From Amphiscolops sp. MND2022 (Eukaryota): DNA of 64,000 bases. The stretch is from positions 8,620,001 through 8,684,000 of the forward strand of contig OZ076409.1 of the NCBI GenBank assembly GCA_964187785.1, written 5' to 3'. Below, one piece after another: positions 36,503 through 54,505 of the stretch. Position 1 is the stretch's first letter, and each line of letters begins with the position of its first letter. The notes under the pieces were generated by a model, which saw only the letters and a program-made list of their open reading frames with translations, ran no database searches and was not told the origin of the DNA. The position numbers were made by a program, and so were the translations under genes.

Positions 36503-39500
36503 ATGTTCCATTACTCGGGCGATCTTTGGGAAAAGTGCTGTGAATGGATGGAGTTGATAGACTTTACGGCCCAGCAAAACTATCCAATTCCCTCCGTTTC
36601 CAAATCGAAGAACGAGAAAGAATTTCAAAGTGCTCTCAAAGATGGTTCAGCCCTTTGCTATTTACTGCACCACATCGACCCCGATTCCATTGACAAGAAA
36701 AATATTCGGCTCAACTGTTCAGCGTCGCGAGATCAATCCATCCACAATGCCCAAATGTTTTTGTCATCATGCGAGGACTATTACATGCAAGGGTGTTAAA
36801 ATAATAATTGTCGGGAAAATAATTAGCAATAAATAAATTGCAATTATTCATTTTTGACCAAAAGCAACACAACTTATTTAATTTTGAAGGCAATTATTGT
36901 AGCAAAATAGTTTTTGGTGTAGTTTACGCGTATGCGTAGAAATCCTAATGGGATTACCGATTTTGGAACAAAAATTGTTGCCAACCAATCTCTAAGCCGA
37001 GGTGTTCTTGCGCTCAAACAGGCCTTTTTGGGATGTACAAACTGCTTGTGAGATGAGAAACCAAGAGGCTGACAAAATCAATGATTTCGGGGGATGAAAG
37101 AATTCAATGAAAGAATTCTGGGGAAACAATTGCGCAATAATTAATTGTTTTCGGTTTGACAATAATTGAATCATGGGTTCAATAATTTATTGTTTCTCCT
37201 GAATTCAACACTCTTGATTGCATGACACTCACTTGTGACCTGTTCGAAGCATCGATTCTGTACGAGTGCCAACAACTGGACGCTGTGTTTTTGGCTCTGA
37301 GTTCTCTCAGCAAGACGATGCGATTCGCGGAAGTCATGCTCGAGAAATGCCACAATGTCCCTATTTTTGAAATACACGAGGAATTCAATGGTAAATGATT
37401 TGGCGGAAAAATGGTATTCTTGGAGTACTGTTTTCCATCTCGGAAAAGGATGAGAACCAATTTGCGTTGTTGATTTTTAGGATTCGAAAAAAATGCACTC
37501 GTACCTTTTCCCCTGACCTTTCAATGAAAATTACATGTTTCTGAAAAACTGTCCATAAGATTTCTATAAAATTTAGCACAGTCATTCTACACCCAAAGGA
37601 GGCTCCTACGTGCGCAATGGCATCAAAAGTTTATGACTAGGACTTGAGAAAGATTTAGTCCAAAAATGACCGAAAAACTGCCATTTTTTGGTCTTTTTTC
37701 GATTTTGTCAAAATCTGTCTATACGATTCGAACGAAATTCTCTTACAATCATTCTACGCCGCATTAGGGTCCTATGTGTGCAATGACATGAAAATCGTAT
37801 GACTTGGATCTGAGAAAGAATGCCAAAGATAGTCCAAAATAATGACCAAATGAAAATAAAGGACGTAATTTGTTTTCCAATATTTTAATCCGTTTCCGAC
37901 TCTTTTACCGCACATGCGGCTCCGGTTCCAAAAGCAAAAATCTACCTTTGTTGAAAGTTTGAAGACTAAATTACTGACTCTAATCTAAAATTCACTCAAA
38001 TTTCAATGGAGTTTTTGATTCACATTTTGCTTTTAAACACGTTTTTAGTCTGCGCATTTTTTATGTTCCCCTCTTCGGGATTTCCGTGTTTCAACTTTAA
38101 GATCGACAATTTTGAGCTTAGAGGGTCCTCAATCCCCGGCTTTTCGGCACTGTGCAATTTTTTAGCGATTTTTGATTTATTTTTTCAAAAATCACCATTT
38201 CAATTTTTGACGTTTCAAGTTTAAAAAGCGTTTTATGGATCCTTTGGATAATTTCCGCACCGAACTATTTCCAAAAAAATTGAGTCACCCTGAGCATAAT
38301 TTAAGGGCAGAGTTTTTGAGTCTTTAGTGGGGCGCCGACTTTAGAAGGTCTCGTCTTGTTAATCCTTCAAACAAGCAAACGCTTTCAAATATCTTTACCG
38401 CCAAACAAACAGATGAAGGAGAGGATCACATGTACCATCTAGCTGGATCCCACACCGAATCCACTTTCAATTCGGATTACATGGCATGCACACAGTTTGA
38501 GCTTTCGACGGATGACAGTGTCTACGACAGCATGATGAGTCAGTATCTCAGCACGACTCTTGCCAACACATCTGCCTCAGTCGACTCCTCGGCATCTTCT
38601 TCGATCTACGTCACCATGTCTCTATCTGACCATTCCAATGTCACGGGTTCGAACCCCATTCTCGCCGAATTATTAGAGAAGGAATCGGGTTTTATTCAGC
38701 TTCTATCGGAACTCCTTCAACTTTACAAAATAAAACTGATTAATATATCGAGTGAACATTTCGACCCAATTTTTTGCGGTGACTTGTTTGACAACATGAA
38801 GGATCTTCACGAAGAAATGAGGAGGCAAATGAATGTTGCGGGTTCGACTTCAAAGGATGAAATTGAAAATGTGTGCGATGTCTTTCAGAAAAACAAAATC
38901 AAGATAGCATCCGTGTATTCCAAATATTTCACACAGATCGATTCCAGTGTTTCAAAGTTGCAACAACTTCTGGACGAGAATCCCTTTCTCCGAGATATTT
39001 TTGAGCGCATTAAAAAAGAGGCATTTGAAGATTCTCAGTGTAAAGCATTCGATCTTTGTGTTGTGCTTCGGGTTCCGTTTCAACATGTTCTGAGGTACCA
39101 ATTGTTTTTTGATCGTTTATGTGAGAAGGTTATTCCTTCAGTAGCTCCTGGAAGCAATACTCGGCTGGTCAACACCTTGGAAAAGACAGCGGAAATGATG
39201 AAAGACTTGAATGAACATTTTAACGAGTGCAAACGCAACATGGAATCTTTACAGTATCTCTCCGTCAAGTTCAAAGATGTATTAGATTCCAGTGATCCCG
39301 AAGAAGAAGCGAAATCTTTTGGGAAATTTCTGAAAGAAGAAGAATTTCCGAAAGTAAAAGTGGGGAAATCATTTTGGAGTAAAACCGATGTACTTCTTTT
39401 CCAGAAAGCTGTCGTGTTTCACAATAAAACTAAACATCTAGTGCTTAAATTAGACACAAGTGTGGTAGATACGCACAGTAAACCAAATGTTATGACCTTT

Positions 39501-40505
39501 AGAGGAGATTCAGATTACAGAACAGTGGAATTGGTCATCAAAAATCAAGATTCATTCGATACGTGGAAAAATTTGGTTGACAAAGTTTTGGAAGTAAACT
39601 GGCTTAAAGAAAGCAATCACCACAAAGTAACTCTGGAATCTTTCGAAGACGTCGCTTTCTGTGTTGTTTCTGGGAAGATCTTGAAGGGTAGTTACAGTCA
39701 GGGTTACCAATGCTCAAAGTGTAAAGCGTGTTTCCTCGATTTGACAAGTCTCCGAAACTCCAAACCTTGTCAGAGTTCCCCGGCTACTTCTTGCAGCAAT
39801 CTTCCTGCTCTGAGAAGCTTTTTTGAGAACCACAGTTTCACAGAAAACAAAGCCCAAGTCCGCCCAACCTCACCGACTATATGCAAGGATCCTGAAAACA
39901 TAGATCTTACATCTATGACCAACCTTATTCTCGGGAGTCTCGATGAACTCTCAGAGTATCCCTGGTTCTGCCCAATCAAGAACCGAAAAACTTCCTACAA
40001 AGTTTGTTCACTGCTCCCTGAGAACACCTTTTTGGTTCGAAGAAGCGAAAACGATAGAAACTCGGCCGCTCTCATGATCAAACATAAAACGAAAGTTCAC
40101 AATATGAAGATCACTGTTTGGCCTCAAACTGGTTGTTGCGGGCTGACACAACATTTGACCTTCTCAAGTATCCCAAAACTGGTCGAGAACTTCCAAACCA
40201 ATTCTCTTTCAACCTGCATCCCAGAATTACAGACGACTCTCATTTTTCCATTCAAGGAAGGCTTGAAAAGGATGAAAAGCTCGTTGGATTCTTCAAAACA
40301 TCAGAGTTTAGCTTTTTTGAAGAGATCAGCCTCCGTTTGTATAGAGAACAATTGTTGTGAGTTGCAACCGGGTGACATTGTGATTGTTCAGTTGCAGCAA
40401 AATGATCCCAAATCTTCCAGAGTTGAAGGGTTTGTCGAAACAAAAGCAGGATCTTTCAAATCACATGAATTTTATCTTCCGGCTGACATTCTTGAACCAA
40501 TTTAG
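36503..40505 (+). CDS. vav: Vav-like Rho/Rac guanine nucleotide exchange factor (CH - acidic - DH - PH - C1 - SH2 - SH3-like), divergent
   Basis: Segments 36503-36787 (DLWEKCCEWM...ALKDGSALCYLL, CH), 37225-37390 (DLFEA...VFLALSSLS) and 38413-40505. The last has DH (VPFQHVLRYQLFF), C1 (GYQCSKC) and SH2 (YPWF...TFLVRRS...FSSIPKLVENFQ). Intron 37391-38412 is GT-AG, phase 1. Confidence 0.85.
36788..37216. mobile_element. hAT-type MITE inserted in the vav CH-domain coding sequence
   Basis: TIR CAAGGGTGTT / AACACTCTTG; TSD ATTACATG / ATTGCATG. Confidence 0.8.
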
Positions 40506-40944: not shown

Positions 40945-41434
40945 AAGAAGTTAAATGCAATGCCAGTGAACAAATTTTGATTGATCTCGTCGACGTTTGA
41001 TTGGTTAATCTGAATTAGTGCTTGTACGAACTATAGCAATTTTGGCTGACGCGTTTTGTAACCAAATACGTCTGGCTGTCACGCTGACAAGTTTTTCCCT
41101 TTTTTTCGCCAGATCACAGAGTAGACGATTAATTATCCACTTTTTACAGACTTAACACTTAAAATCTAAAACATACCCTTTTGTGATTTTCATATTTTTT
41201 TGATCTAAAAAACCAAATGATATCAACTGGTCCCTATTTGGGAGTTTTTTCGGCACTGTGCGACTTTTTTCGAACATTTTTAAACATGATAAAAACATGC
41301 ACAAACGAGCTATCAGCACGTGTCATCATCCAAAATTTTTGTTGCAAAAGAGTCAGTTTTAGTCTAAATTAGCAAAGTACTTGAATCGTCCAAAGGTGCT
41401 AGGAAAAAAGTTAACATGTCACTTTGATTGAACA

Positions 41435-42130
41435 TTTAACAATCGCTTTTTACTAGATTTCTATTCGTTTCAACTTTCGATGCGCAGGGCGATTGTTGGG
41501 GTAAATGGATATATTTTGTTTTTAAAAGTGACTAGTGGATATTTCTAAAAAAAGAACAAAAAAAAGTCTATAAGAAAATGAAAACTCAATTTTAAAGAAC
41601 GATATTTACTGACCAAAATTATTAAGTAACAAACAGCAACTTACATTTGGCTTGATGGATGATGTTATGGCTGTGATAGTTTTCGGTTTCTGAAGATACT
41701 TCTGCAGGTGCAAGAAACGAATAAATAATTAATCCTGCACTGGGTAAGAGTGGGGCTTTTGATGAATGTTAATAAAGGAGCAGCTGAATTGGGCGCATAA
41801 AATAATAAGAGCAGCTTTAAATAAGGGGCAGCTGAAATAAGGGGGCGGCTGAACAATTGGGAAGCTGAATCAGACTCAACAAAATATTTATTACTGCGAG
41901 GCAGCTGGATTTTTAGAAACGACCACAAGGCTTTTTAAAATGCACACTGCCTGGAACTGCCTGGATAATTGTTTGTAAAATATTTTAAAAAAGTAAAATG
42001 TGCACAACAATTGTTACAATGTATATTAAGCAACGCTGTTAATATTTTTCAATATATAGATGTGTATATGTAACGTGTATGAAGTCTCACATGTATTAAA
42101 AAATTCATTTCCTGTTTACTGTCCGCTATA
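41435..42130 (-). repeat. 3' LTR
   Basis: Direct repeat of 53482-54177; same length, no difference seen by eye. Confidence 0.95.
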
Positions 42131-42145
42131 CTACCCTCCCCCGTG
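42131..42145 (-). other. Polypurine tract
   Basis: Minus strand CACGGGGGAGGGTAG abuts the 3' LTR. Confidence 0.85.
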
Positions 42146-42170
42146 AAAGGCTGCGTCCCCGCCAGCCAAA

Positions 42171-43241
42171 TTACTCGAACCAGTCCGACATGTGTGAGTC
42201 ACAATCCTTGCAGGTCCGTAAGTTACGACGGGCCCGGCGAACACCTGTCATACCGCAACACTGGTATACTTTGTTGAGCCGGGGATCCGTGAGGACGTTT
42301 TTCGCTTCCTTAAGGCAGGGGACCAGTTGGGACACTTCGGCTGGGATGGAAGGGTTCTTGTCGGGGTGTACGAGTCTTAAAAGATGTCTAGCATGACGAT
42401 TGATCTTTTCGACATCGGCTGTAGGTGGCAGGCCAAGTATATGAAAGAATATGTTCTCATCTGCGAAATCGAGTTCAGGAGTATATGTGGAAAGTTGATA
42501 AATTAGCATGTCAGTGGTTAGATGGGCATCTGAAACCCTGTTGGCGGCTAGTTTAAGGTTAGAGAGTTCTTCGCTTTGCTGGAGACTGTGTTGCAGCAAA
42601 GAGCTGTTTTCGTCGCTGAGGGCACTGAGGCGCTTCTTCAGGGCGGCTATTTCACTGTCTTTTTCGGCGAGGGCGACGACTTGAGAAGCAATGTTGGTTT
42701 GTAAACCAGCGAGCTCGACTTTGCTTCATGAATTTCCTTTTCCTTTGCCTTCCGAAGAGTCATTTCCTCGCAAAGGAGGTCGAACGTATGCTCACACTCG
42801 ATGCGAGCCTTATTAGCTGCTGCACGGGCTTCTTCAAAACCCTTATTGAGTTCGCCAACCGAAGAAAACTCTGATACTAAGAGTTCCATGCTGTCGTCAG
42901 CGTCGAGGGACGCATCCACTGCTACATCGCAGGTGTCCACTATTAATTTAGGGGGTACTGGCGAGCAATCACAGATTGCTGGAGGGGGAGGGCAGTCCAC
43001 TTCCACGCTCAGGCTGTTACTGCTTGGAGGAGGAAGCCAGATTTCCGTAGCTGGTCGAGCAAAGCAACGATTACTTGAATTAATTTTTTGTAGCACAACA
43101 GTTTGTGTAGCGGGGTTTATTCTCTTGATACGATAATCGTCTTTGTCCAACAAGCGGACTACATATCCCTCTGCCAGGGGCTGCACGCGGCCGCTGCTGA
43201 GGAGGAAGGGCGCTGGAACTGGAGCTGCTGGAAACTGGAAC
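42171..43241 (-). CDS. Accessory coiled-coil + J-domain (DnaJ, HPD) protein, split by a 1-nt frameshift near 42720
   Basis: Upstream frame runs to ...EKEIHEAK. The -1 frame opens at 42725 as KVELAGLQ... (coiled coil), then FFHILGL...LVHPDKNP...EAKNVLTDP..Y and a CKDC tail. Acceptor TTTCAG|G at 43242/43241. Confidence 0.75.
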
Positions 43242-43362
43242 CTGAAACAACAAAAAAACTGATTGCACCGATTACACTTTGTACGGAAATCCTACTTAGG
43301 ATGCGGAAACGCATCTGCTAGACACTAATTGTTTAAACAATTAGGAAAAAACTTAATTGCGG

Positions 43363-43737
43363 ACACGGAAACGTGTGTTGTGAGGCACTAGTTGCGTAGC
43401 GAAGCAACTAGGAGAAAAAGACAGCTTAGCGAAAAGAGATTCACCACGGAAACGTGTATCAATACAGGCGCTAGTTGCGTAGTGAAGCAACTAGGAAGGA
43501 AAAGACAATCTAAGGGAAAGTAACGGAACACGGAAACGTGTAAAACAGGCACTAGCTGCGTAATAAAGCAACTAGGAAGGAAAGGCAACCTAGAGGAACG
43601 TAAGTAACACGGAAACGTGTAGAACAGGCACTAGCTGCGTAGTAAAGCAACTAGGAAGGAAAGGCAACCTAGAGGAACGTAAGTAACACGGAAACGTGTA
43701 GAACAGGCACTAGCTGCGTAGGAAAGCATCTAGGAAG
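43363..43737. repeat. Tandem array of about five 80-bp double-hairpin units
   Basis: Each unit has CACG-GAAA-CGTG and CTAG(T/C)TGC-N8-GCAACTAG. Confidence 0.85.
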
Positions 43738-46152
43738 GGAAATCCTAAGTAGTTGATAAAGAAGCTGAAATTGACAGTGAGACAGAAATGTGCTAAACAA
43801 TTAAATGATGTCGAAGTAGACTCATAAGTAGGCGCACTAATATTAGGATAAACACGTGGTGGAAGTGTAGGGGCGTTGGGTGCAGTGTAATTAGATGGTT
43901 TCGGTTCAGCTTGACGAATGGTTTCGCGAGCCAGCAAAATCAGTGCGCGGAATTCAGCGTCCGTCAAATACAAAAATGGAGAATTGGTCAAATCATACTC
44001 CGCGGTAATTGATTCGACTATATTAATGAATCTACCGGAAGTAGCCCGGAAAAAGCGTTGAGGATTGGTAAAAAGACGCTGCCAATGACGTCTAAACAAA
44101 GTAAAACTTATAGAAAATGTTAAAATAGACATTGTAATGGACAATGACGAAAGTAAAAAAGCAGTACGGGTGGGTAAATATGACTGTAAAGCTGCTGATG
44201 TGGCCGGCGAGATCGAAGAATAATACTTAGCGATTGGCTCTGTCAGTTGATCTAGAGTTTCCGGCGACATGTGTTGGACGTCAGGTAGTTCGGCTAGTTC
44301 CATTCGTAGACTGCCAAGAACTGACTGACGAGCTTCACTCGTAGAATATGCCTGAAATTCGGCGCTACCAATGGCGGGTACATGCGCGAAGACTTGATTC
44401 AAAGACGGTGTCAGCTCAATCGACGCAAGAAAAGGCTCCGGCCGGGTCTCGCAAAAATCCATGTCAGGATGAAGAACCAGTTCACCCTGGTTGAAAGACA
44501 GTGTACTCGAACAGCTAGGGCGTATGACACACGCCTGACAGGTGATAGTAGAGATAGAAAGGCCGTCAATTTGGCTATCGTTTTTGAATTTGAGGGTGGG
44601 AGACCGTGATATGACGTGGTACATCCCATCCGCCAAATAAAAAGCCTGAGGAGCGTCGGGTAAAAGTACTGCGCGGACTTCGCAATTGCGTAAGGCGGGA
44701 ACATCGTAGTTATAGAACAAGGATCCTAAGCAAAGAAGAGTTTCATCGGTTGTTGTTGAGAAGCCTTTTCTACATAATTTGATACGATTGTTGCCCGAAC
44801 ATTGCTGCAGCGTGTTAGCACCGAGCTCTGCAAATCTACTATTGTCAGTAGATACTGCCAAAAAAGGGTTCGCAAAATTGAAGAGCGACGCAGTTTTCTG
44901 GTCATTGTTGGGCTGATACAGAGGCGTGGCATGGTAAATGTCAAACGTCGACGACTTTGAATTCATTGGGATCCCAAGAATGACAGATATACCACGTGGT
45001 ATCAAAGTTACTTCGAGTACTAATTGTATCTCATAGTATATTGCCTCAAAACCAGGTCGAATAGCTGGGGACAGTTTGGTGCCTCGCTTTACTTCGTCAT
45101 CTGCTAAGTCTTTGACAATTTGCGCCACTTGTTGAGGCAGAAGAAACTGAGGTGTGATGTAGCCACTAGCTAACGAGGAAATGGTGGAGTAGAGCGAAAT
45201 GCGGTAAGCGTAAAACGCTGCACGGTACGACTTGAGATGAGTGTAAAGTGTCCCTAGCTGATAGACGTAATTTCGCAAGAATTGCTGAAGGCTAAGGTGA
45301 CGAATAATCACTCTATCACACTCAAGGCTAGTCGCAGCCAAGTAGCGAGTAGCATTAACTAGGTAAAACTCCATTTGTTGGAAGCGGAGACCGACACTTT
45401 CTTTTAGTTTCTGGACACTTTCCTGGGTCTGTTTAATCTCGTTTCCTAGAAGGAAGAAATTCTTGTCGTTTCGAGTTTGAACACGCTGCAGTGTATCAAC
45501 TATTTCTTGCTGTGTGCTCATTATGCGTTCCACGTCGCGACTCAGATCTTCATTGGTGTGACAGAGATTAAATATAGAAAGCGCACTACAAGCGGCGTCT
45601 TTGATTGGTTCACCCAAGACCATTCCGGCACCTGCTGCGATTGCAGCAATAGCGGCAATTGCTCGACGTGGTCGTGCGATGTCATCAGATTGTCTAACAG
45701 CTGGTGGAATGAAAGAATTCACAACTTCCAGAAGAGTGTCTTCCTCTTGTTGAGCTGCTGCCAACTCTGTTTGCAGGAAATTGACTCTTGTCACAAGTTG
45801 TTGCAGGAGGAGGTCATAGGTGTCATTAACGTCTGTAAACTTGCAGTTTGTATTGATGTACATACCTCCGATGCTTCGAGGGGCTGTCTGGAAGGCATTG
45901 ATCATGTTAATGGCATTGGTAATGTTGATTAGAGGCATCTTGGGGAAGGGAGAGAACACGCGGACTTTGCTTTCGCTCTCCGAGGTAACAGCTTGGTATT
46001 TGAACACAAACGCTGCACCTTTCTTGAATACGGGTTTTTCCAGGTCATCGTTGAGGTGTGTTGTGAACTGCACATCCGCAAAGATCAGGACCGACCAACG
46101 GACGAACAGAAAGAGAAACCAGAAATGTTGAGAGTTTGGAAAGTAGGAAATC
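43710..46152 (-). CDS. env: Envelope glycoprotein, class I F-type fusion protein
   Basis: In-frame hydrophobic signal FWFLFLFVRWSVLIFA upstream of the called ORF. Furin site RPRR is followed by fusion peptide AIAAIAAIAAGAGMVLG, a heptad region, a Cys-rich block and TM AFLLSSLSITMSILTFSISFTLF. Confidence 0.85.
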
Positions 46153-46396
46153 CTGAAAAACAGAGGAGCCTTGTTAGGCCATTGGTGATGGGAAATGACC
46201 TGGAGAGAGAAATAAAATGCAACTATTTGAAGTTATTTCTTTTTTGTATAGTTTTTGGAACGTTTGGTGGAATGTGGCATGCTGTGCAGTGGCGGCGAGT
46301 TGAAATCGGTTAGTTCAGAAGGTATTGAGGAATTACACAGGGGTTCCGCCAATCGCTGTGTGCGTGTACTTGCGCGGAGATTGTATGGTCTGTTTA

Positions 46397-47140
46397 TCAT
46401 ATCTCAAAACTGAACAGCAGCGTTTTCAACGATGTTTCGGGATTCGTTTGACAAAGGTGAATGGGATGCTGGTGCTTGACGATAGCTTGGGTTGTCGACT
46501 GAGAAGTTGCGGGAGTGGCCATCGTCTGAACTCCAGGAGATTGAAAAGATTGGGAATGCTGATTACCGGAGAGGAAAGCGGGAGTTCGGGTTTGGGTCGG
46601 TGACTGAGCATTGTGGCTAGTTAATTGTGGCGTTGGAGTAGTCTGGTGGTTCAGGTGAGCAGGGCTGTGGAGATTCACAGGCTGCAGTGGTGGCTGTTGA
46701 AAATGCATGCAGCATCGATGCGAGGTTTCAGGTGGTGTGGTGTTCAAGTCGTTATTCCGTGTTGGGACATTGGAGTGAACTGGTTTTGTGGGCTGGGTTA
46801 AGCTAGTATTTCGAGTAGGCACATTTGAAGTAGCTGGTTTTTCGCAAAAAGGTTTCAACCTATCGTAGTGAACGATCAGCTCTTTGGACGTAGACAATTC
46901 TCTTATCTTGTATGTGACCTCATTGAAACAGTCAAGTATCACATATGGACCACGCCATGGGTTGTGGAACTTGGTTGTTTGGCCAACTGGGACCACTGGT
47001 GTGTGGAGCAACACTTTCTGTCCCTGTTCGTAGGTAGGACCATGGATCTTCTCGTTGTAAATGGCGTTGCGACGTTTTTGGTTTTTATTAATGTTGGCTC
47101 GCACTAGTTCGAAAGCTCTTTGGAAGGCCAATTTTCGATT
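46397..47140 (-). CDS. Integrase C-terminal (GPY/F) segment, in frame with pol after an internal TAA
   Basis: KFHNPWRGPYVI...VHYDRLKPF; same frame as pol (...TDFV*NRKLAFQ). Confidence 0.85.
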   Translation of the reverse strand, partial: NRKLAFQRAFELVRANINKNQKRRNAIYNEKIHGPTYEQGQKVLLHTPVVPVGQTTKFHNPWRGPYVILDCFNEVTYKIRELSTSKELIVHYDRLKPFCEKPATSNVPTRNTSLTQPTKPVHSNVPTRNNDLNTTPPETSHRCCMHFQQPPLQPVNLHSPAHLNHQTTPTPQLTSHNAQSPTQTRTPAFLSGNQHSQSFQSPGVQTMATPATSQSTTQAIVKHQHPIHLCQTNPETSLKTLLFSFEI

Positions 47141-50100
47141 TTATACAAAATCCGTAGGCGACATTGGTTTTTCGGCTTCAGGTGCAGGGTGCATCAAATC
47201 GATTGGCAAGGAAATTTCTCGCCCATGAACAAGAAATTGAGGCGAATATCCGGTTGATTCATGTACAGATGACCGGTAGGCCATCATTACGGAGGGTAAC
47301 TGTTGGGACCAGTTACTTTGTTCAGCGTTCACGCATTTTGCTAGCATGTTCTGGATTGTTCGATTCATTCGCTCGATCACTGCATTAGACTGGGGCCTAA
47401 AAGCAGTTGTTCTTGTTTTGTCAATGTGAAGGCTTGTCATGAGCGTCTGGAACAACTTGGACTCAAAATTACGTCCTTGATCACTATGTATGCTGTAGGG
47501 GCAACCAAATCGACAGATCCAATGTTCGATAAGAGCGGTAGCCGTTGTTGTAGCTTGCTGATCTGGCAAGGGAATTGCTTCATACCATTTTGTGAAATGA
47601 TCCCCGATCAACAGAATTACTTTGTTTCCATTCGAGGCCGGCAATGGGCCCATGAAATCGATTCCAATGTGGTGAAAGGGATAACTAGCTTTCCACTCTA
47701 CAAGGGAATGACGATGTGTTTTGGGAGGATCCGAGCGTCGCTGACATTCGGAACAACGTTTTATGAAAAGCTTGATATCCTCTTTGAAACCAGGCCACCA
47801 AAAACGCTGTCGAACTTTCTCCATCACCTTGGCTAAACCTAGATGTCCACTGGTAGCGGAAGAGTGCAAGTTTGTTAGGATATGTTCTACCAAGGTACGG
47901 GGAACAATTTGCTGTAGGTACGGAAGTTCACTTCCAACTGGTTCATACCGTCGACAAAGAACGTCATTGGCCAGATATAAACTGTGGAATTGATTGTACA
48001 GCTTCCATGCTAACTCGGGACTTCCTTGTAGGTCGTTATTCCGCGGCACACGACCCCTGCGAACCCATTCTTTTACGATCTTCAGGGCCTCGTCCTCATC
48101 TTGAGCATTGCGGACATCAATGTCCGCATGCACTGGTTCATTATCTTTAGCGGTTTCTACGGGTGGGCCTTCGCTCTCAAGTGAAATTGATGGAGGCAAA
48201 TAAATAGTTATACATACATTGGATCCGTCAAAGACTTCTCGGATGAGTCTGCGAACCAAATCCCAGTCAAGTTTATCATTTCCACAGCCTATTTGAGGCA
48301 TACTAATCTTTAGGACGTCGTTCGTTTCAGCATGGCTACGCATGTGTTCCAGAGAAGCTCGAAGTGAAGTATATGTTGGCTTTTGGTAGTAACGTTCCTT
48401 AGTCAGCAAGTGATACAGGAAACGGCCGTCACCAGGTAATGGTTGTACCCAAAGTGGCACAGTTTGCTTTGATAAGTCCTCTGGATACTGTGCTGGGAAC
48501 TTCCTTTTGAATGATCGGGCTATTCCAGAACTCATTTTAAAATCAGCTGAGATACAGTGAGCTAGGGACTCCGAAGAACTGAACAAATCGCCCTTCACCT
48601 CGCGATACTTGACAATGCCTGTTTCTGTAATGACTAGTTCTTCTTGTAGAGGCTTTTCTTGTGGTTGCTCGTGTTCGAGAAGTTCGCCGGTTTTAACTTT
48701 GCTGTGATTATTAGCTTTTTCCTTGAGTTCAATGATAGCTTGGAGTGGTATTGATGCTGTATCTCTAGGCAATAGGTGAATACTGTAGTTAGATTGTGCG
48801 TTGGGCCATTCCTCGTCATTGTTGCAATTCTTCGTCTTTGTTGCACCTGGGACTCCTGTTCGGCATTCTTGCGTTAATTGGACGGATTCAGTTGGTATTC
48901 TGGACAGACTGTCGGCATGTCCGATGGATTTGCCTGGTCTATGTTGCACTTCGTAATCAAAAGCTGCTAGTTTTTCAATCCAACGTGCAATGAGACCGTC
49001 GGGGTCCTTGAAATTGTGTAACCAGCGAAGTGCACTGTGGTCTGTGACAATTTTGAATTTTCTACCGAGTAGGTAATGTCGGAAGTACCGAGTGAAATGG
49101 ACCATTGCGAGAAGTTCTCGTTTCGTCGCTGAGTACTTTGATTGGGATTTGGAGAATGCCTTTGATGCATAGCAAATAGCACGTTCCTGGCCATTTTGTA
49201 CTTGGGCTAGAACGGCTCCCATTGCTAGTTGGCTGGCATCCGTGTAGAGGATGAAAGGATCTTCCATTGTTGGAAAGGCTAAAATTGGTGTTGTGAGGAG
49301 TCGTGCTTTTAGATCTTCAAACGCTTGCTCTGCCTCAGTTGTCCACTTAAAAGGCGAGTTGGTTTCACTCGCTTTATGCAAGGGACGAGCGATTTCAGCG
49401 AAGTTTTTGATGTAACGTCTATAGTAGGAACAAAGGCCCAAGAATGACTTCACCTGGGTCTGGTTAATTGGGACCGGAAACTCTTTAACGGCTGCAATTT
49501 TTGTGGGATCAACTTGAAGGCCTTCTTTGCTGATGACATGGCCCAAGAAGTGGACTTTGGTGCGGAAAAACTCGCATTTTAGGGGGTTTATTTTCAAGTT
49601 GGCTTGTCTAAATCTGCCTAGAACTTCCCTGACTCGTTCTAAGTGTTCCTCCGGGGAAGCGGCAAAGATGATACAATCGTCAAGGTAGGGGACTGTTGTT
49701 TTCCAGATAAGTTTCGCCAAAACGATTTCCATTAAATTTTGGAACGTCGGTGGACTGTTTGTGAGTCCCATCGGCATTACAAGCCATTTGAAGGAACCAA
49801 AAGGTGTGCTGAAAGCAGTATAATCTTGACTTGATTCGTCTAAGGGCAGCTGATAAAATCCCCAACTCATGTCTATAGTGGAAAAGACTGAACTTCCATC
49901 TAGAGTGTCAAAAATTTCTTCAATCGAAGGGATTGGCCAACAAGACTTGATTGTTTGACTATTCAATTGTCTGTAGTCAATGACGAGGCGGAGTTTTCCG
50001 TTTTTCTTCGGGACTAGCATGGCGGGTGCACTGTAAGGGCTGTGACAAGGAGCTATTAACTTCTTGTCCAGGAACGCGTCTAATTTCTCTTGGAGATCCT

Positions 50101-51148
50101 GTTTATAGTGGAGGGGCATTCTGCGATTCGGAATTTTAATCGGCTTTGATCCGGGGTATACGTCTATTTTGTGTGTTGTAGCTTCGCAACGACCAATGTC
50201 CCATTGGTTTTGCGAAAACACATCTTCGAATTCGTAAACAAGTTCTGCGAATTTCTGTTTTATTTTGAATGGAATTTCCGGATCAACTCCATCCACTACA
50301 TTTTTCAAATCGTACGATTCGTCCTTTTCGTCTATTTTAGACTTCAAGCTTTTTGTTTCGGTTACAACGTTTTGTATGGGTAAATCAGGGATTGCTTCTG
50401 AAGTACCCAAAGTTGTTTTCTCATACAAGATCAGTGGCTCTTCTCCAGAATTTTCGATCGTCACCGGGATGTTTTCCTCAGCAAAGTTGAACAAAATACT
50501 TGGTGCCACTGCTTCTTTTGAGCCATCGAACCGTTCGTGCGGCTGGAAAATTGCTACACCCTCATTCAATGGGCGTTTCCAATCCTTGATGTGCGCTGGC
50601 ACAATCATTGTATGTCGTGGTGGTACCGAAACTGTCTCGGACACCACCACCCTGAACACAGTTGTCTTAGCATCTGTGAGCTGACGATGATACAGGGGGA
50701 CTGTCGTCTTTTCATCCAGACGCAGAATATCTTGGGAAAACAACGGGTCGCATTTATGAGTTTTGAGGAAGTCTAAGCCGAGTAGACAGTCAGCTTCTGC
50801 TTGCTCCAGAACGTGAAACGAATGTTCGTAATGTCTCGGACCGATTTGCAAAGGTAGTTGCACAATGCCGCATGTTACTATAGGTTGTTTGTTGGCTGCT
50901 ACTAGCTTCGTGTCTGACGGTTTTAGCTCTAATTTCTTCCCGTTCTTCAATTTCCCAAATGCATCAGAACTCAGGCAAGACACACTTGCTCCACTATCAC
51001 ACACAGCCTCAATCACCGTATTAAAAATGGATAATTGGACGAATACACTTCTGTGATCCACCACAGAGTTAAGAGTCTGAATTTGTGGGCCTCGGTTTGT
51101 GGTCTTGTCTGCGCTCTGACCCGCTAGCGTAGACATTTCTAGTTTAAA
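47141..51148 (-). CDS. pol: Pol polyprotein: protease - RT - RNase H - macrodomain - integrase
   Basis: DSGA protease; LRLVIDYR, MPMGL and YLDD (RT); YTDAS and TDHSAL (RNase H); GDLF...GCGND (macrodomain); HHCC zinc finger and D,D,E integrase core. Confidence 0.95.
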   Translation of the reverse strand, partial: FKLEMSTLAGQSADKTTNRGPQIQTLNSVVDHRSVFVQLSIFNTVIEAVCDSGASVSCLSSDAFGKLKNGKKLELKPSDTKLVAANKQPIVTCGIVQLPLQIGPRHYEHSFHVLEQAEADCLLGLDFLKTHKCDPLFSQDILRLDEKTTVPLYHRQLTDAKTTVFRVVVSETVSVPPRHTMIVPAHIKDWKRPLNEGVAIFQPHERFDGSKEAVAPSILFNFAEENIPVTIENSGEEPLILYEKTTLGTSEAIPDLPIQNVVTETKSLKSKIDEKDESYDLKNVVDGVDPEIPFKIKQKFAELVYEFEDVFSQNQWDIGRCEATTHKIDVYPGSKPIKIPNRRMPLHYKQDLQEKLDAFLDKKLIAPCHSPYSAPAMLVPKKNGKLRLVIDYRQLNSQTIKSCWPIPSIEEIFDTLDGSSVFSTIDMSWGFYQLPLDESSQDYTAFSTPFGSFKWLVMPMGLTNSPPTFQNLMEIVLAKLIWKTTVPYLDDCIIFAASPEEHLERVREVLGRFRQANLKINPLKCEFFRTKVHFLGHVISKEGLQVDPTKIAAVKEFPVPINQTQVKSFLGLCSYYRRYIKNFAEIARPLHKASETNSPFKWTTEAEQAFEDLKARLLTTPILAFPTMEDPFILYTDASQLAMGAVLAQVQNGQERAICYASKAFSKSQSKYSATKRELLAMVHFTRYFRHYLLGRKFKIVTDHSALRWLHNFKDPDGLIARWIEKLAAFDYEVQHRPGKSIGHADSLSRIPTESVQLTQECRTGVPGATKTKNCNNDEEWPNAQSNYSIHLLPRDTASIPLQAIIELKEKANNHSKVKTGELLEHEQPQEKPLQEELVITETGIVKYREVKGDLFSSSESLAHCISADFKMSSGIARSFKRKFPAQYPEDLSKQTVPLWVQPLPGDGRFLYHLLTKERYYQKPTYTSLRASLEHMRSHAETNDVLKISMPQIGCGNDKLDWDLVRRLIREVFDGSNVCITIYLPPSISLESEGPPVETAKDNEPVHADIDVRNAQDEDEALKIVKEWVRRGRVPRNNDLQGSPELAWKLYNQFHSLYLANDVLCRRYEPVGSELPYLQQIVPRTLVEHILTNLHSSATSGHLGLAKVMEKVRQRFWWPGFKEDIKLFIKRCSECQRRSDPPKTHRHSLVEWKASYPFHHIGIDFMGPLPASNGNKVILLIGDHFTKWYEAIPLPDQQATTTATALIEHWICRFGCPYSIHSDQGRNFESKLFQTLMTSLHIDKTRTTAFRPQSNAVIERMNRTIQNMLAKCVNAEQSNWSQQLPSVMMAYRSSVHESTGYSPQFLVHGREISLPIDLMHPAPEAEKPMSPTDFV
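51106..51148 (-). promoter_or_regulatory. -1 programmed ribosomal frameshift signal
   Basis: T TTA AAC in the gag frame directly before TAG, a 6-nt spacer, then stem TGTCTaCGCT/AGCGcAGACA. Confidence 0.8.
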
Positions 51149-52359
51149 TGTTCCCTTTTGGGAGCCTTGCATTCATTCTGGAAATGACCGACTCTCAAAC
51201 AATTGAAACAAGCTTTGCACTCCTTCGTTGTATGATTTTTGCGTGTGCAACGCTCGCACGGCTTCCGATTGTTTTGCGTGTTGTTATTGTTGCCTTGTTT
51301 CTTGGGATGGGGGGAATCTTGGCGATACTGTTGTTTTTGTGTTTTGTCAGATCTGCCTGCGTTATTTGGTCGTTCGCGTCCTTGTGACGACTGAAATCGT
51401 ACTGACTGGCCACTCCGATTGGAATCATTACTCTGCGATCTCGAGTGATCATTTCTGTTTGATGATTTTGTGTCTCGTCGTTGATGGAAATCATTATTGG
51501 ACCGATACGTTGACGACTGAAGTTCAGTTTGTAATGATCGAACAAAATCAGCCATAATTTTGGACGCTGATGGCTCCGCTTCAGAAGAAGTACTAACTCG
51601 GTTAACTGTTTGAGCGGCTTGGGGGTTTCCGTTCTCAATCTCCAGGAACGAATTCAGCTCCATAGCCAAGGACAAAGCATCATCCGCTGTGGCTAGCTTG
51701 GCTTTTCGGAGCTCCCATCGAAGCGTTTTGTCGCTTAACCCTTCAATGAAGCACGTCAGAACTACCGGATCAATCATAGCAGGATGATCCCGATATGCAC
51801 GACGCGCCAGCGTCCGAACGTCACATAGGAAAGATGAAATATCTTGGTTGGGTTGCTGCTTCGCGGCTTTCAATCTTGCTTTCAGAATATCGCCATTAGT
51901 TGTGTAATTCTGGCGGAACGCGTCAACGAGCATATCGAAGTTAGTTTGTTGTGATGGAGACAACGTAGTGTAGAAATGCAAAGCATTTTCTCTCAATCGC
52001 AACGCAAAATAATGTGGTCTGTTATCGTGTGCGTTCGAATACCAGCCTGAGAGAAGTGCTGCTGTGTTAAATTGTTGCAGGTAATCTTCGAAATCACCTT
52101 TTCCTGTGAAAGACTCTGGCATCAGACATGACGGAAGCGGGGCTATGTATGGAACACTTGTTGGGTTTTGTCTACCGCCAGGCAGAGTGAAAAAGGAAGC
52201 TGTTGGGGTTGTACTAGTGTTAGGAGTTGTAGAACCCACGGTAGGTGCTTGTGCTGGTGCTTGGGAGCTACTTGCACCACCACTAGTAACTGGGGTTGTA
52301 GTGGTATTGGTTACCGCTGTCGAGGTGGCCGTTGTGGGGGTGCTTGGTTGAGTGCTCAT
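51139..52359 (-). CDS. gag: Gag (406 aa from the first ATG)
   Basis: PESFTG...F..Y capsid-like region; two CX2CX4HX4C knuckles (CERCTRKNHTTKEC, CFNCLRVGHFQNEC). Confidence 0.9.
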   Translation of the reverse strand: MSTQPSTPTTATSTAVTNTTTTPVTSGGASSSQAPAQAPTVGSTTPNTSTTPTASFFTLPGGRQNPTSVPYIAPLPSCLMPESFTGKGDFEDYLQQFNTAALLSGWYSNAHDNRPHYFALRLRENALHFYTTLSPSQQTNFDMLVDAFRQNYTTNGDILKARLKAAKQQPNQDISSFLCDVRTLARRAYRDHPAMIDPVVLTCFIEGLSDKTLRWELRKAKLATADDALSLAMELNSFLEIENGNPQAAQTVNRVSTSSEAEPSASKIMADFVRSLQTELQSSTYRSNNDFHQRRDTKSSNRNDHSRSQSNDSNRSGQSVRFQSSQGRERPNNAGRSDKTQKQQYRQDSPHPKKQGNNNNTQNNRKPCERCTRKNHTTKECKACFNCLRVGHFQNECKAPKREHLN

Positions 52360-52400
52360 TGTATTTGAACGCTTAAAGTCTACGTTAGGTCTAGAACGTT

Positions 52401-52799
52401 TCACATGCGATCCATTCGCAGCGGACCAAAATTGAGACTAGGTGGTTTGCAGTCGGGATAGACCAAATAGAATGGATTCGTTACGTGTATTGCTAGAAAT
52501 TGAATATGAGAAGCCCAAATATTGGATAATTGAGGGAAAAAGGACGCACAGGAAGCTTTTACACTTGCATTGTTATCAACACGACCATACGGGAAAGTTG
52601 AACAAACGTTTCGATGTTGCCAATTGTGGATAGCCTCAAGACGCAAATGAATCGACAGTTCATGTGCCGTAAAACGACGTTCTGGTTGATGCGATAATGG
52701 AATTTTGAAAAGTTTCACTTGGCAGAAGTAGCAAGGAATAACGAAGTTTTGAGGCGGTGTGTTTGACAAAACGGAAACAGGTATGCTAAAAGTATACAT
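52401..52799 (-). CDS. Pre-gag accessory ORF 2 (132 aa, CYFC and His motifs)
   Basis: ATG-initiated; packed 10 nt after ORF 1 and ending 41 nt before the gag ATG. Confidence 0.5.
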   Translation of the reverse strand: MYTFSIPVSVLSNTPPQNFVIPCYFCQVKLFKIPLSHQPERRFTAHELSIHLRLEAIHNWQHRNVCSTFPYGRVDNNASVKASCASFFPQLSNIWASHIQFLAIHVTNPFYLVYPDCKPPSLNFGPLRMDRM

Positions 52800-52809
52800 T
52801 AGGCCGCTC

Positions 52810-53079
52810 CTACAGAGACGTATAGTCCACTCTTTGGGTTTGAAGTGCTTTACAAGTTATATTTATCTTGTTGATTTCGTACGACATCGCACAAAGGGCT
52901 AAAACGGTCAAGAGAAGCGCAAAACAGAGGATCAAGAGTAGAAAACTTAAAAAACAGGGCGTGAATATCGGTCTTTCACGTGTTTCGCTGTAAGAGGGCG
53001 GAGGACTTGATGGTCGAAGCGGTCGTTGGGGAAAAACGTACAACGGTAGGTGAGAATGCGTATTGTGAGCACAAGGCAT
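52810..53079 (-). CDS. Pre-gag accessory ORF 1 (89 aa, PPxY + single TM helix)
   Basis: ATG-initiated; PPPSY followed by a hydrophobic run of about 22 residues, FLSFLLLILCFALLLTVLALCA. Confidence 0.55.
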   Translation of the reverse strand: MPCAHNTHSHLPLYVFPQRPLRPSSPPPSYSETRERPIFTPCFLSFLLLILCFALLLTVLALCAMSYEINKINITCKALQTQRVDYTSL

Positions 53080-53462
53080 ATCAACAAAAAAATTCGCGGC
53101 GGTTATTAAAATTTAGGTTATCAAAAGAAAACGGAACTATTTTGATAGAAATGTTACAAAAAATTGGCTACTGTTTGTTTTATGACAAGCACTTACCGTG
53201 TAACTTCTTAAAACTTAAGGGCATTGGGTCAAATGTGCCATTTTAAAGCCTGAGACACGCCGAAGCGGAAAGACACAGCATTGAGCTGGAAAACTAGGCA
53301 CGGACCATGTCCGGATTGGGAATCTTATGGGCAACACTGGCGAACCAGGAAATGGCACATTTCAAAAAAATTTTTGGATCGGGTCTAGGACTAAGAATGT
53401 TTTGATGGGGGTTCTAAGTTACTTTAAATTTTTTTTTGTAAAAAAAACTTCTTTTCACAAAT

Positions 53463-53480
53463 ATCCCACTCCTGTCACCA
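53463..53480 (-). other. Primer binding site, probably tRNA-Leu
   Basis: TGGTGACAGGAGTGGGAT, 1 nt from the 5' LTR; resembles the complement of the metazoan tRNA-Leu 3' end (..ATCCCACTCCTGACACCA) with one difference. Confidence 0.8.
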
Positions 53481-53481
53481 T

Positions 53482-54177
53482 TTTAACAATCGCTTTTTAC
53501 TAGATTTCTATTCGTTTCAACTTTCGATGCGCAGGGCGATTGTTGGGGTAAATGGATATATTTTGTTTTTAAAAGTGACTAGTGGATATTTCTAAAAAAA
53601 GAACAAAAAAAAGTCTATAAGAAAATGAAAACTCAATTTTAAAGAACGATATTTACTGACCAAAATTATTAAGTAACAAACAGCAACTTACATTTGGCTT
53701 GATGGATGATGTTATGGCTGTGATAGTTTTCGGTTTCTGAAGATACTTCTGCAGGTGCAAGAAACGAATAAATAATTAATCCTGCACTGGGTAAGAGTGG
53801 GGCTTTTGATGAATGTTAATAAAGGAGCAGCTGAATTGGGCGCATAAAATAATAAGAGCAGCTTTAAATAAGGGGCAGCTGAAATAAGGGGGCGGCTGAA
53901 CAATTGGGAAGCTGAATCAGACTCAACAAAATATTTATTACTGCGAGGCAGCTGGATTTTTAGAAACGACCACAAGGCTTTTTAAAATGCACACTGCCTG
54001 GAACTGCCTGGATAATTGTTTGTAAAATATTTTAAAAAAGTAAAATGTGCACAACAATTGTTACAATGTATATTAAGCAACGCTGTTAATATTTTTCAAT
54101 ATATAGATGTGTATATGTAACGTGTATGAAGTCTCACATGTATTAAAAAATTCATTTCCTGTTTACTGTCCGCTATA
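53482..54177 (-). repeat. 5' LTR
   Basis: Direct repeat of 41435-42130; minus-strand AATAAA at 53934-53939; consensus donor AT|GTAAGT at 53686-53693. Confidence 0.95.
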
Positions 54178-54505
54178 AACATATCATTTGAAATTGGCAT
54201 CGTATTCAACTGAGGATGAAGGTAATGGCTTCACGGTTCAAATCACTCTGCGTGTAAGCGAAACTTTCAGATTTTAAATATGGTATTTTGGGAGAATAAG
54301 AACTTCTTGCTTTCCTTCATTCCAATGTCTTTCAAACTTCCCAACTTAAAATAATCCTTATAGTTCACATGCATTGCAAAATGTACCTTTGTCATCAAAT
54401 GTTTCTTTTATCCAGGTACCATTTCAGCTCTGTTTTGTTCATCATAGAGATAGCGAATATTGTTGTGAATTTAATTTTAGTGATTTATTACCAGGGGGTT
54501 ACGAT

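Follow-up and report, generated by a model that had tools for sequence, protein, structure and literature searches.

A conserved J-domain gene between the env-like frame and the 3′ LTR of Ty3/gypsy-type elements in Amphiscolops sp. MND2022

INTRODUCTION

What does a DnaJ-type domain do in a retroelement? The question is raised by a 64,000-nucleotide (nt) stretch of the Amphiscolops sp. MND2022 genome (positions 8,620,001–8,684,000 of contig OZ076409.1, assembly GCA_964187785.1; hereafter the window), the minus strand of which carries a Ty3/gypsy-type element with long terminal repeats (LTRs) and, close to the 3′ LTR, an open reading frame (ORF) encoding a J-domain, called here the J-ORF. A preliminary description, made from the letters alone, had taken the J-ORF for a gene of the element whose product recruits Hsp70 for capsid assembly or uncoating, or for remodelling host factors. 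Here we ask whether the J-ORF is a gene, what kind of protein it encodes and what the element could gain from it.

An intact J-domain with its HPD motif docks on Hsp70 and triggers ATP hydrolysis, and in class C J-proteins the remainder of the molecule sets the location. Host Hsp70 and Hsp40 are needed at several steps by retroviruses and LTR retrotransposons; as far as the literature was searched, neither is known to encode a co-chaperone of its own.

RESULTS

The J-domain of the J-ORF

The J-ORF is the last frame of the element, on the sense strand of which gag, pol, an env-like frame, the J-ORF, the polypurine tract (PPT) and the 3′ LTR follow one another (coordinates are collected in Table 1). 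In the window copy it is split into two overlapping frames. The downstream one (42174–42725, minus strand) contains ENIFFHILGLPPTADVEKINRHARHLLRLVHPDKNPSIPAEVSQLVPCLKEAKNVLTDPRLNKVYQCCG and reads as the preliminary description had quoted it; the gene had also been placed there on the sense strand, ending just ahead of the PPT, where the stop codon was indeed found. The profile search proposed as a check matched Pfam DnaJ (PF00226) to residues 93–154 of the 184-residue piece with an E-value of 3e-10 and a score of 40.5 bits, above the curated cut-off of 27.8. When the PDB sequences were searched with phmmer, all 33 matches at E ≤ 0.01 had DnaJ/Hsp40-type names or were J-domain fusion constructs, and in their alignment helix II is basic and helix IV shows the usual L-x-D-P-x-x-x-x-x-Y pattern.

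The AlphaFold model of the J-domain and tail (31-row alignment) reached a pLDDT of 85.1 and a pTM of 0.74, with helices at residues 19–24, 32–46, 56–73 and 75–93 and the HPD motif between the second and the third. Foldseek comparison of this model with the PDB returned, to judge by the titles, J-domains or chains belonging to J-domain proteins, including DNAJC5, DNAJB8, Thermus DnaJ, Ydj1, DnaK-bound DnaJ and ERdj5 (TM-score on the target up to 0.87, rmsd 1.2–2.5 Å over about 66 columns); three rows were axonemal or radial-spoke complexes, the titles of which give no chain names. A J-fold is thus predicted, as the preliminary description had expected. The HPD motif, on the conservation of which that description had also relied, is kept in 18 of 20 open frames from the genome, the exceptions being QPD and HLN (the latter in an element with pol and env in pieces). 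Among 119 family representatives, counted without selecting for HPD, 58 extend over the motif and 37 of these have it; the other 21 differ at one or more residues, HLD occurring five times.

Copies, families and selection

The 1.07-Gb genome was searched for further copies. The 1,170-nt J-ORF region gave 37 matches, 25 of them near full length at 73–100% identity. Among these 25 copies, the J frame is clean, open (366–382 codons) and HPD-bearing in 11 and open with QPD in one, while in 13, including the window copy, it is interrupted or altered at its end. A protein search with the J-domain and tail yielded 135 matches, including families at 59, 57, 52, 46, 42, 39 and 35% identity with open frames of about 330–400 codons. 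The strong matches extend through the family-specific tail, i.e., they are members of the element family. No host DnaJ gene that could have been the donor was found among the strong matches, to which inspection was confined; host DnaJ genes could lie among the weak, partial ones.

In all eight diverged loci, pol is followed by an env-like frame (about 790–840 codons, broken in some loci) and then by the J-ORF, the J frame is open in all eight and HPD is kept in seven. Where the 3′ LTR was found, the J-ORF ends a few tens of bases ahead of it. Six of the seven loci that were extended have LTR pairs of 98.1–100% identity, and two of the extended loci keep all four frames (gag, pol, env-like and J) open. 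Compared with the window proteins, identities are 69% (pol), 75% (env) and 49% (J-ORF) in the nearest family and 44–60%, 50–60% and 30–34%, respectively, at the other seven loci. The J-ORF therefore evolves about twice as fast as pol and env, and the joint fall of the three identities fits one old acquisition followed by co-divergence. In a hand tally of two genome searches, about 50 of about 60 env-like places were followed by a J match on the same strand, no more than 3 kb downstream; the others were truncated pieces, lay 17–29 kb from the nearest J match, had the J match on the other strand or had no listed match. Both lists of places are lower bounds, 86 of 773 env candidates having been scored. 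The existence of 25 near-full-length copies and many diverged families argues against a chance frame, and we conclude that a clade of envelope-carrying Ty3/gypsy-type elements has in the J-ORF a genuine and conserved accessory gene.

The comparison of substitution rates across copies, another check proposed at the outset, pointed to strong purifying selection: the ratio of non-synonymous to synonymous rates (dN/dS; Nei–Gojobori, 11 pairs of natural open copies) was 0.11–0.26 over the whole J-ORF. Between two subfamilies, the J-domain and tail show 46 synonymous and 20 non-synonymous differences (dN/dS 0.046); in the same pair the N-terminal part is nearly identical, and the J part of one member resembles a third subfamily. 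The differences between copies of the element reflect both selection while lineages were active and neutral decay once copies had been inserted, and since the decay is included in the counts, the true constraint is if anything stronger than the ratios suggest. Variation is unevenly distributed along the protein, the rod and the N-terminal domain (N-domain) described below being far more variable than the J-domain. A mosaic pattern is seen in the J-ORFs of L002, L008, L014 and L016: one subfamily has an N-terminal third nearly identical to that of a second and a J-domain resembling that of a third, which indicates recombination among element subfamilies.

Relatives in other sequences

A word-indexed protein search returned 13 clusters at 38–100% identity, all unnamed, and none of the 37 members examined in 10 clusters carries a name. 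In the HMMER profile search, 461 proteins were matched at E ≤ 1e-3, among them 81 at E ≤ 1e-10 and 27 at E ≤ 1e-30. Of the 150 best matches, some 120 extend over the N-domain or the rod, with or without the J-domain. The closest sequence in this genome is only 27% identical to one full-length relative and 65% identical to another; the family is therefore also present in other genomes. In one predicted protein, a motif like that of the env tail stands at the start and runs into the N-domain, reflecting either the same gene order elsewhere or an undetected copy in this genome. Among metagenome contigs and viral contigs no relative was confirmed. As the family has no name in the sources checked, it is missed by genome annotation at present. 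A 679-residue database protein (P0079) consists of six near-identical tandem J-domain units; it was matched through its J-domains only and is unrelated to the element family.

Protein architecture

The encoded protein has about 340–380 residues and consists of the N-domain, a helix of about 135 residues, the C-terminal J-domain with HPD and a short Cys/His tail. All full-length work was done with a natural open sibling, L002, in place of the two pieces of the window copy. Its full-length model (10-row alignment) is weak overall (pLDDT 59), and within it residues 131–267 form a single helix with pLDDT >90. The coiled coil announced ahead of the J-domain is thus matched by a predicted long helix, which is probably a coiled-coil rod. 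The N-domain, which carries WLPPP and CxC-PxPP motifs, was modelled as a small, beta-rich unit with a pLDDT of about 67. A broad structural search with the full-length model gave only long-helix matches to the rod and hence no fold for the N-domain; the ESM Atlas search gave no lead (best score 0.78), and the N-terminal half of the J-ORF had no meaningful Pfam match.

In the tail, the first of the four spaced positions is C in 28 and H in 11 representatives, and the other three are C in 43 of 47, 40 of 42 and 32 of 41. The exchange of Cys for His at the first position suggests a metal site, so the tail may bind zinc. Neither the DnaJ C-terminal domain nor the CxxCxGxG domain was matched in Pfam at E ≤ 0.01 or at E ≤ 1, and a G/F region is also missing. 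The layout of class A and B DnaJ proteins (N-terminal J-domain, G/F region and client-binding domains) is therefore not that of the J-ORF product, the J-domain of which is C-terminal, and the protein is assigned to class C (type III) by exclusion, because the class A/B features are missing.

The window copy and its host element

LTRs with a target-site duplication, a primer-binding-site-like sequence, a PPT, and gag and pol in errantivirus-like order mark the element of the window as an LTR element of Ty3/gypsy type (Table 1). The Pfam domains of pol are in the order Asp_protease, RVT_1, RT_RNaseH, Integrase_H2C2 and rve. An Rfam scan across the element gave nothing at E ≤ 0.1.

Table 1. Positions of the element, its genes and the parts of the J-ORF within the window
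Feature	Position	Strand	Remarks
Ty3/gypsy-type LTR element	41435–54177	minus	12,743 bp
5′ LTR	53482–54177	minus	696 bp
3′ LTR	41435–42130	minus	696 bp; 100% identical to the 5′ LTR at every base
Target-site duplication TGTT	41431–41434 (3′ side) and 54178–54181 (5′ side)	minus	4 bp; read directly
Primer-binding-site-like TGGTGACAGGAGTGGGAT	53463–53480	minus	TGG-initiated; one base past the 5′ LTR; read directly
gag	51145–52359	minus	Retrotrans_gag domain and CCHC knuckle (Pfam, zf-CCHC)
pol	46400–51172	minus	Protease, reverse transcriptase (RT), RNase H, integrase; in-frame stop at 47141–47143
env-like frame	43713–46232	minus	840 codons
Tandem repeat	43383–43738	minus	79-bp unit, 4.4 copies; between env-like frame and J-ORF
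J-ORF region	42174–43291	minus	Two overlapping frames on the element's sense strand
Poly-T tract, then CAG/G	43241–43259	minus	Acceptor-like; at the start of the conserved frame
J-ORF upstream frame	42650–43291	minus	N-terminal part and start of long helix
N-terminal domain	43025–43192	minus	Conserved (GRVQPL...WLPPP); beta-rich
Long helix	42528–42892	minus	Predicted coiled-coil-like rod; spans the frame break
Frame break	42719–42727, about 42723	minus	One-base length difference
J-ORF C-terminal frame	42174–42725	minus	184 codons; end of long helix, J-domain, Cys/His tail
J-domain	42264–42449	minus	Pfam DnaJ, profile positions 2–62 of 63
HPD motif	42360–42368	minus	
Cys/His tail	42192–42266	minus	Y-x-[C/H]-C-G-x2-G...C-x2-C after the J-domain; possible zinc site
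J-ORF stop codon	42171–42173	minus	28 nt ahead of the PPT
PPT GGGGGAGGGTAG	42131–42142	minus	Adjoins the 3′ LTR upstream; read directly

The one-base length difference that breaks the J-ORF was seen against all six siblings of 99% identity. Counted from the acceptor-like site at 43241, the open sibling frames (366–382 codons in full) have about 357 codons, the very length given in the preliminary description for a repaired frame. The LTRs of the window copy are identical and yet the copy contains two defects, the stop in the integrase region (47141–47143) and the frame break at about 42723; either a defective RNA was copied with the help of other copies, or these are assembly errors.

The env-like frame has neither a Pfam match nor a match among the PDB sequences. 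Its N-terminal stretch is hydrophobic, an RPRR sequence stands ahead of a hydrophobic stretch rich in Ala, Gly and Ile, and the C-terminal part has a further hydrophobic segment and a conserved tail motif; the RPRR with its hydrophobic stretch and the hydrophobic ends suggest an env-like protein of F type, as judged from sequence features only. At its C-terminus (43713–43800 in the window; also L031, L032 and L034) the motif PPR[VI]YP...AP.[YF]SE[ST] is kept in all families seen, and in the presumed cytoplasmic tail it could act as a sorting or budding signal. Each 79-bp unit of the repeat downstream of this frame contains short palindromes, one of which resembles ACACGTTTCCGTGT on the sense strand. 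Palindromes centred on CGTTTCCG were also observed between env and the J-ORF in L033, L034, L037 and L038, in families with only 57–60% pol identity. The intergenic repeat and palindromes may act in cis on transcription or on the handling of the RNA.

Start of the J-ORF

In six of seven families, a T-rich tract followed by YAG/G stands at the start of the conserved frame, and the Arg codon there is always AGG, fixed even though the surrounding protein is poorly conserved. The length of the T-run at this acceptor-like site varies among sibling copies, and on it depends the in-frame upstream ATG, which just 3 of the 12 open copies in the family of the window element possess and none of the copies examined of the two nearest intact families. 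The env-like frame begins behind a similar acceptor-like site. Because YAG/G is conserved at the frame start and most young copies lack an in-frame ATG, a spliced subgenomic RNA is proposed as the source of the J protein; we regard the chances of this as about even.

To model splicing, donor-like sites with a score of 7 of 9 or better in the leader and at the start of gag were combined with ATGs lying upstream of them. The two good donor-like sites of the window element are in phase 1 with the leader or gag ATG, and the conserved acceptor-like sites that precede env and the J-ORF require phase 2. The splice phase is matched by an ATG in a different frame, but this is not the first ATG. A donor-like GT was noticed at about 52097 inside gag (after ...MPESFTG) and at the same place in L039, the two families having 66% Gag identity; it could serve as a splice donor for subgenomic RNAs, but its phase is not the one that the simple splice models require.

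DISCUSSION

Given the predicted J-fold, the conservation of HPD, the purifying selection and the known biology of J-domains, recruitment of Hsp70 is a reasonable supposition, and in our judgement it is quite probable that the J-ORF product is a conserved class C J-protein, an accessory factor that brings host Hsp70 to a target for the element's benefit. In such a mechanism, the J-domain would dock on host cytosolic Hsp70/Hsc70 and trigger its ATPase, the N-domain and rod would bring Hsp70 to a specific target, and the element's own cycle would benefit, for instance when its Gag/RNA particle is assembled, transported or taken apart, or in the handling of Env. Several observations weigh against this interpretation. 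The window copy itself is defective, owing to the frame break in the J-ORF and the in-frame stop in pol. HPD is missing in 21 of the 58 motif-covering representatives, which we read as decayed copies, and although H, P and D are the sole invariant columns of alignment A2 (31 rows, mean column identity 25%), this is uninformative, because the rows were picked for HPD. The Foldseek E-values are weak (best 5e-3), a consequence of the small size of the domain. Finally, the simple splice models do not close, and no solution holds across three intact families.

A more specific possibility, which we put forward tentatively and at somewhat less than an even chance, is that an old lineage of envelope-carrying retroelements, present in several host genomes, has a "private auxilin" as its fourth gene: the N-domain and rod would sit on the particle or envelope machinery, the J-domain would fire Hsc70, and a step of assembly, transport or uncoating would depend on the J-protein. 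In a predicted complex of Gag with the N-terminal part of the J-ORF product, the partner folded poorly. If this possibility is true, the protein would be the first J-protein of any reverse-transcribing element and would offer a direct handle on how elements use host chaperones.

Other functions have to be weighed against Hsp70 recruitment for the element's own cycle. The faster evolution of the J-ORF, about twice the rate of pol and env, is often seen in host-facing accessory genes, and together with a rod and N-domain that vary far more than the J-domain and with the domain mixing visible among subfamilies it would suit a counter-defence factor, which directs Hsp70 not at the element's particle but at host restriction, e.g., the chaperone-dependent loading of small-RNA silencing proteins. 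The overall dN/dS is low, however, and pairwise counts gave no sign of positive selection, so we regard such a role as unlikely. It is also rather improbable that the product is an ER-lumenal J-protein, entering the ER by a signal peptide and recruiting BiP to fold the large envelope protein. This idea draws on the upstream ATG, which adds the hydrophobic N-terminus MRFRILSRIFVQSVIGAISFFCCF to 3 of 12 open copies in the window's family, on comparable hydrophobic leaders in some other families, on several conserved cysteines in the J protein and on the presence of ERdj5 among the structural matches. The hydrophobic leaders, however, are a translated pyrimidine tract and are explained by composition alone, the two nearest intact families have no ATG at that place, and many of the "M" starts in databases may be non-ATG starts set by the gene finder. 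Moreover, the Cys/His exchange in the tail fits a metal site better than a disulfide, and a long single helix is not a typical feature of the known ER J-proteins.

The J-domain could finally be a passenger, a piece of a host DnaJ gene captured by one element and carried without function. Capture of host sequence by LTR elements does occur, the frame of the window copy is broken, and of the 25 close copies 13 are interrupted; nevertheless, open frames persist at the same position of the element in families down to 30% identity, with dN/dS values of 0.05–0.26, and the N-domain, rod and tail are conserved as well. Neither is there a close host gene among the strong J-domain and tail matches, whose frames of 330–400 codons run through the family-specific tail. 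The data on selection and conservation contradict this explanation, which we find hardly credible.

The proposed recruitment of Hsp70 has its closest parallel in the class C proteins of auxilin/GAK type which, like the J-ORF product, have the targeting part first and an HPD-bearing J-domain at the C-terminus, and lack the G/F region, the DnaJ zinc finger and the DnaJ C-terminal client-binding domains. By this analogy, the layout is that of an auxilin-type recruiter, not of a general DnaJ chaperone. Outside the J-domain, there is no sequence or fold link between the two, and the J-ORF product differs in being encoded by a mobile element and in having a short Cys/His tail after the J-domain. The best Foldseek match (2ctw, 90 columns), which is also among the top PDB sequence matches, is DNAJC5, the cysteine-string protein; it has a cysteine-bearing segment after its J-domain, too. 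Identity to it is only 28%, however, the J-ORF tail has four spaced Cys/His positions and no long cysteine string, and the Cys/His exchange suggests metal binding and not lipid anchoring; in the sequence and structure comparisons there is no evidence of descent from DNAJC5.

Viruses provide further parallels. Polyomavirus T antigens carry a J-domain, which is N-terminal there and C-terminal in the J-ORF product; the parallel with pestiviruses, also drawn in the preliminary description, is loose, because the cellular J-protein fragment that they use is, as far as is known, not the J-domain itself. The BJDP of baculoviruses and the DnaJ proteins encoded by giant viruses and phages have matching folds (Foldseek probability 0.87–1.00); like the T antigens, they are virus-encoded HPD J-domain proteins presumed to use host Hsp70, and all these DNA-virus proteins share only the J-domain with the J-ORF product. 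Among the 50 matches listed from a viral structure library, none of the 43 named ones came from a reverse-transcribing virus, and seven were unnamed.

Additional ORFs have reportedly been found in plant LTR retrotransposons. In bdelloid rotifers, LTR retrotransposons with additional ORFs have been described (Rodriguez et al. 2017, PMC5408684) which, like the J-ORF, are clade-conserved extra genes on the sense strand between pol or env and the 3′ LTR; as far as the accessible text of that paper goes, DnaJ, J domain, chaperone or Hsp70 do not occur in it, and the extra genes are of other kinds. The element of the window resembles the envelope-carrying Ty3/gypsy elements of invertebrates known as "ancient errantiviruses" (Chary & Hayashi, eLife 2026, PMC13524379), which, according to the main text, likewise have LTRs, gag, pol with protease, RT, RNase H and integrase, a large env-like frame and many highly similar copies. 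Their F-type Env has a basic cleavage-like site followed by a hydrophobic stretch, as does the env-like frame. The main text contains none of the terms DnaJ, J domain, chaperone, Hsp70 or accessory, and no fourth gene after env is described there. The accessible part of the Troyka paper mentions no J-domain or chaperone gene, either, and a search of the full-text literature (main texts, mostly outside subscription journals) brought up no LTR retroelement for which a J-domain or DnaJ gene has been described. Thus, the J-ORF combines a known domain with a known element type and yet represents a new class of retroelement accessory gene, adding a fourth gene to the gag-pol-env plan of ancient invertebrate elements. 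A conserved and selected J-domain gene in a position like that of retroviral accessory genes would mean that one lineage took direct control of Hsp70. The protein is small and testable, and HPD offers a clean loss-of-function control for asking which retroelement step needs Hsp70.

Further observations

On contig C4, at about 57.60 and 57.61 Mb, a J match lies beside an env-like match on the opposite strand, which may reflect a rearranged or nested copy. Two tandem arrays were noticed, L046 (contig C1, about 21.58 Mb; period 1,060 bp, 4.5 copies seen) and L047 (contig C12, about 54.71 Mb; period 1,287 bp, 7.2 copies seen). Their units comprise the 3′ part of the J-ORF with adjacent sequence, most of them are frame-broken, and the arrays look like element-derived satellite-like DNA.

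In the window, about 900 bp from the 3′ LTR of the element, there is an intronless frame of 725 codons on the plus strand (38328–40505) with RhoGEF, C1 and SH2 domains (Vav-like), a set of domains that points to an animal host. Three long open frames on the same strand, at 18551–22882 (1,443 codons), 24676–25785 (369 codons) and 26217–27767 (516 codons), had no Pfam match at E ≤ 1 and may belong to another mobile element.

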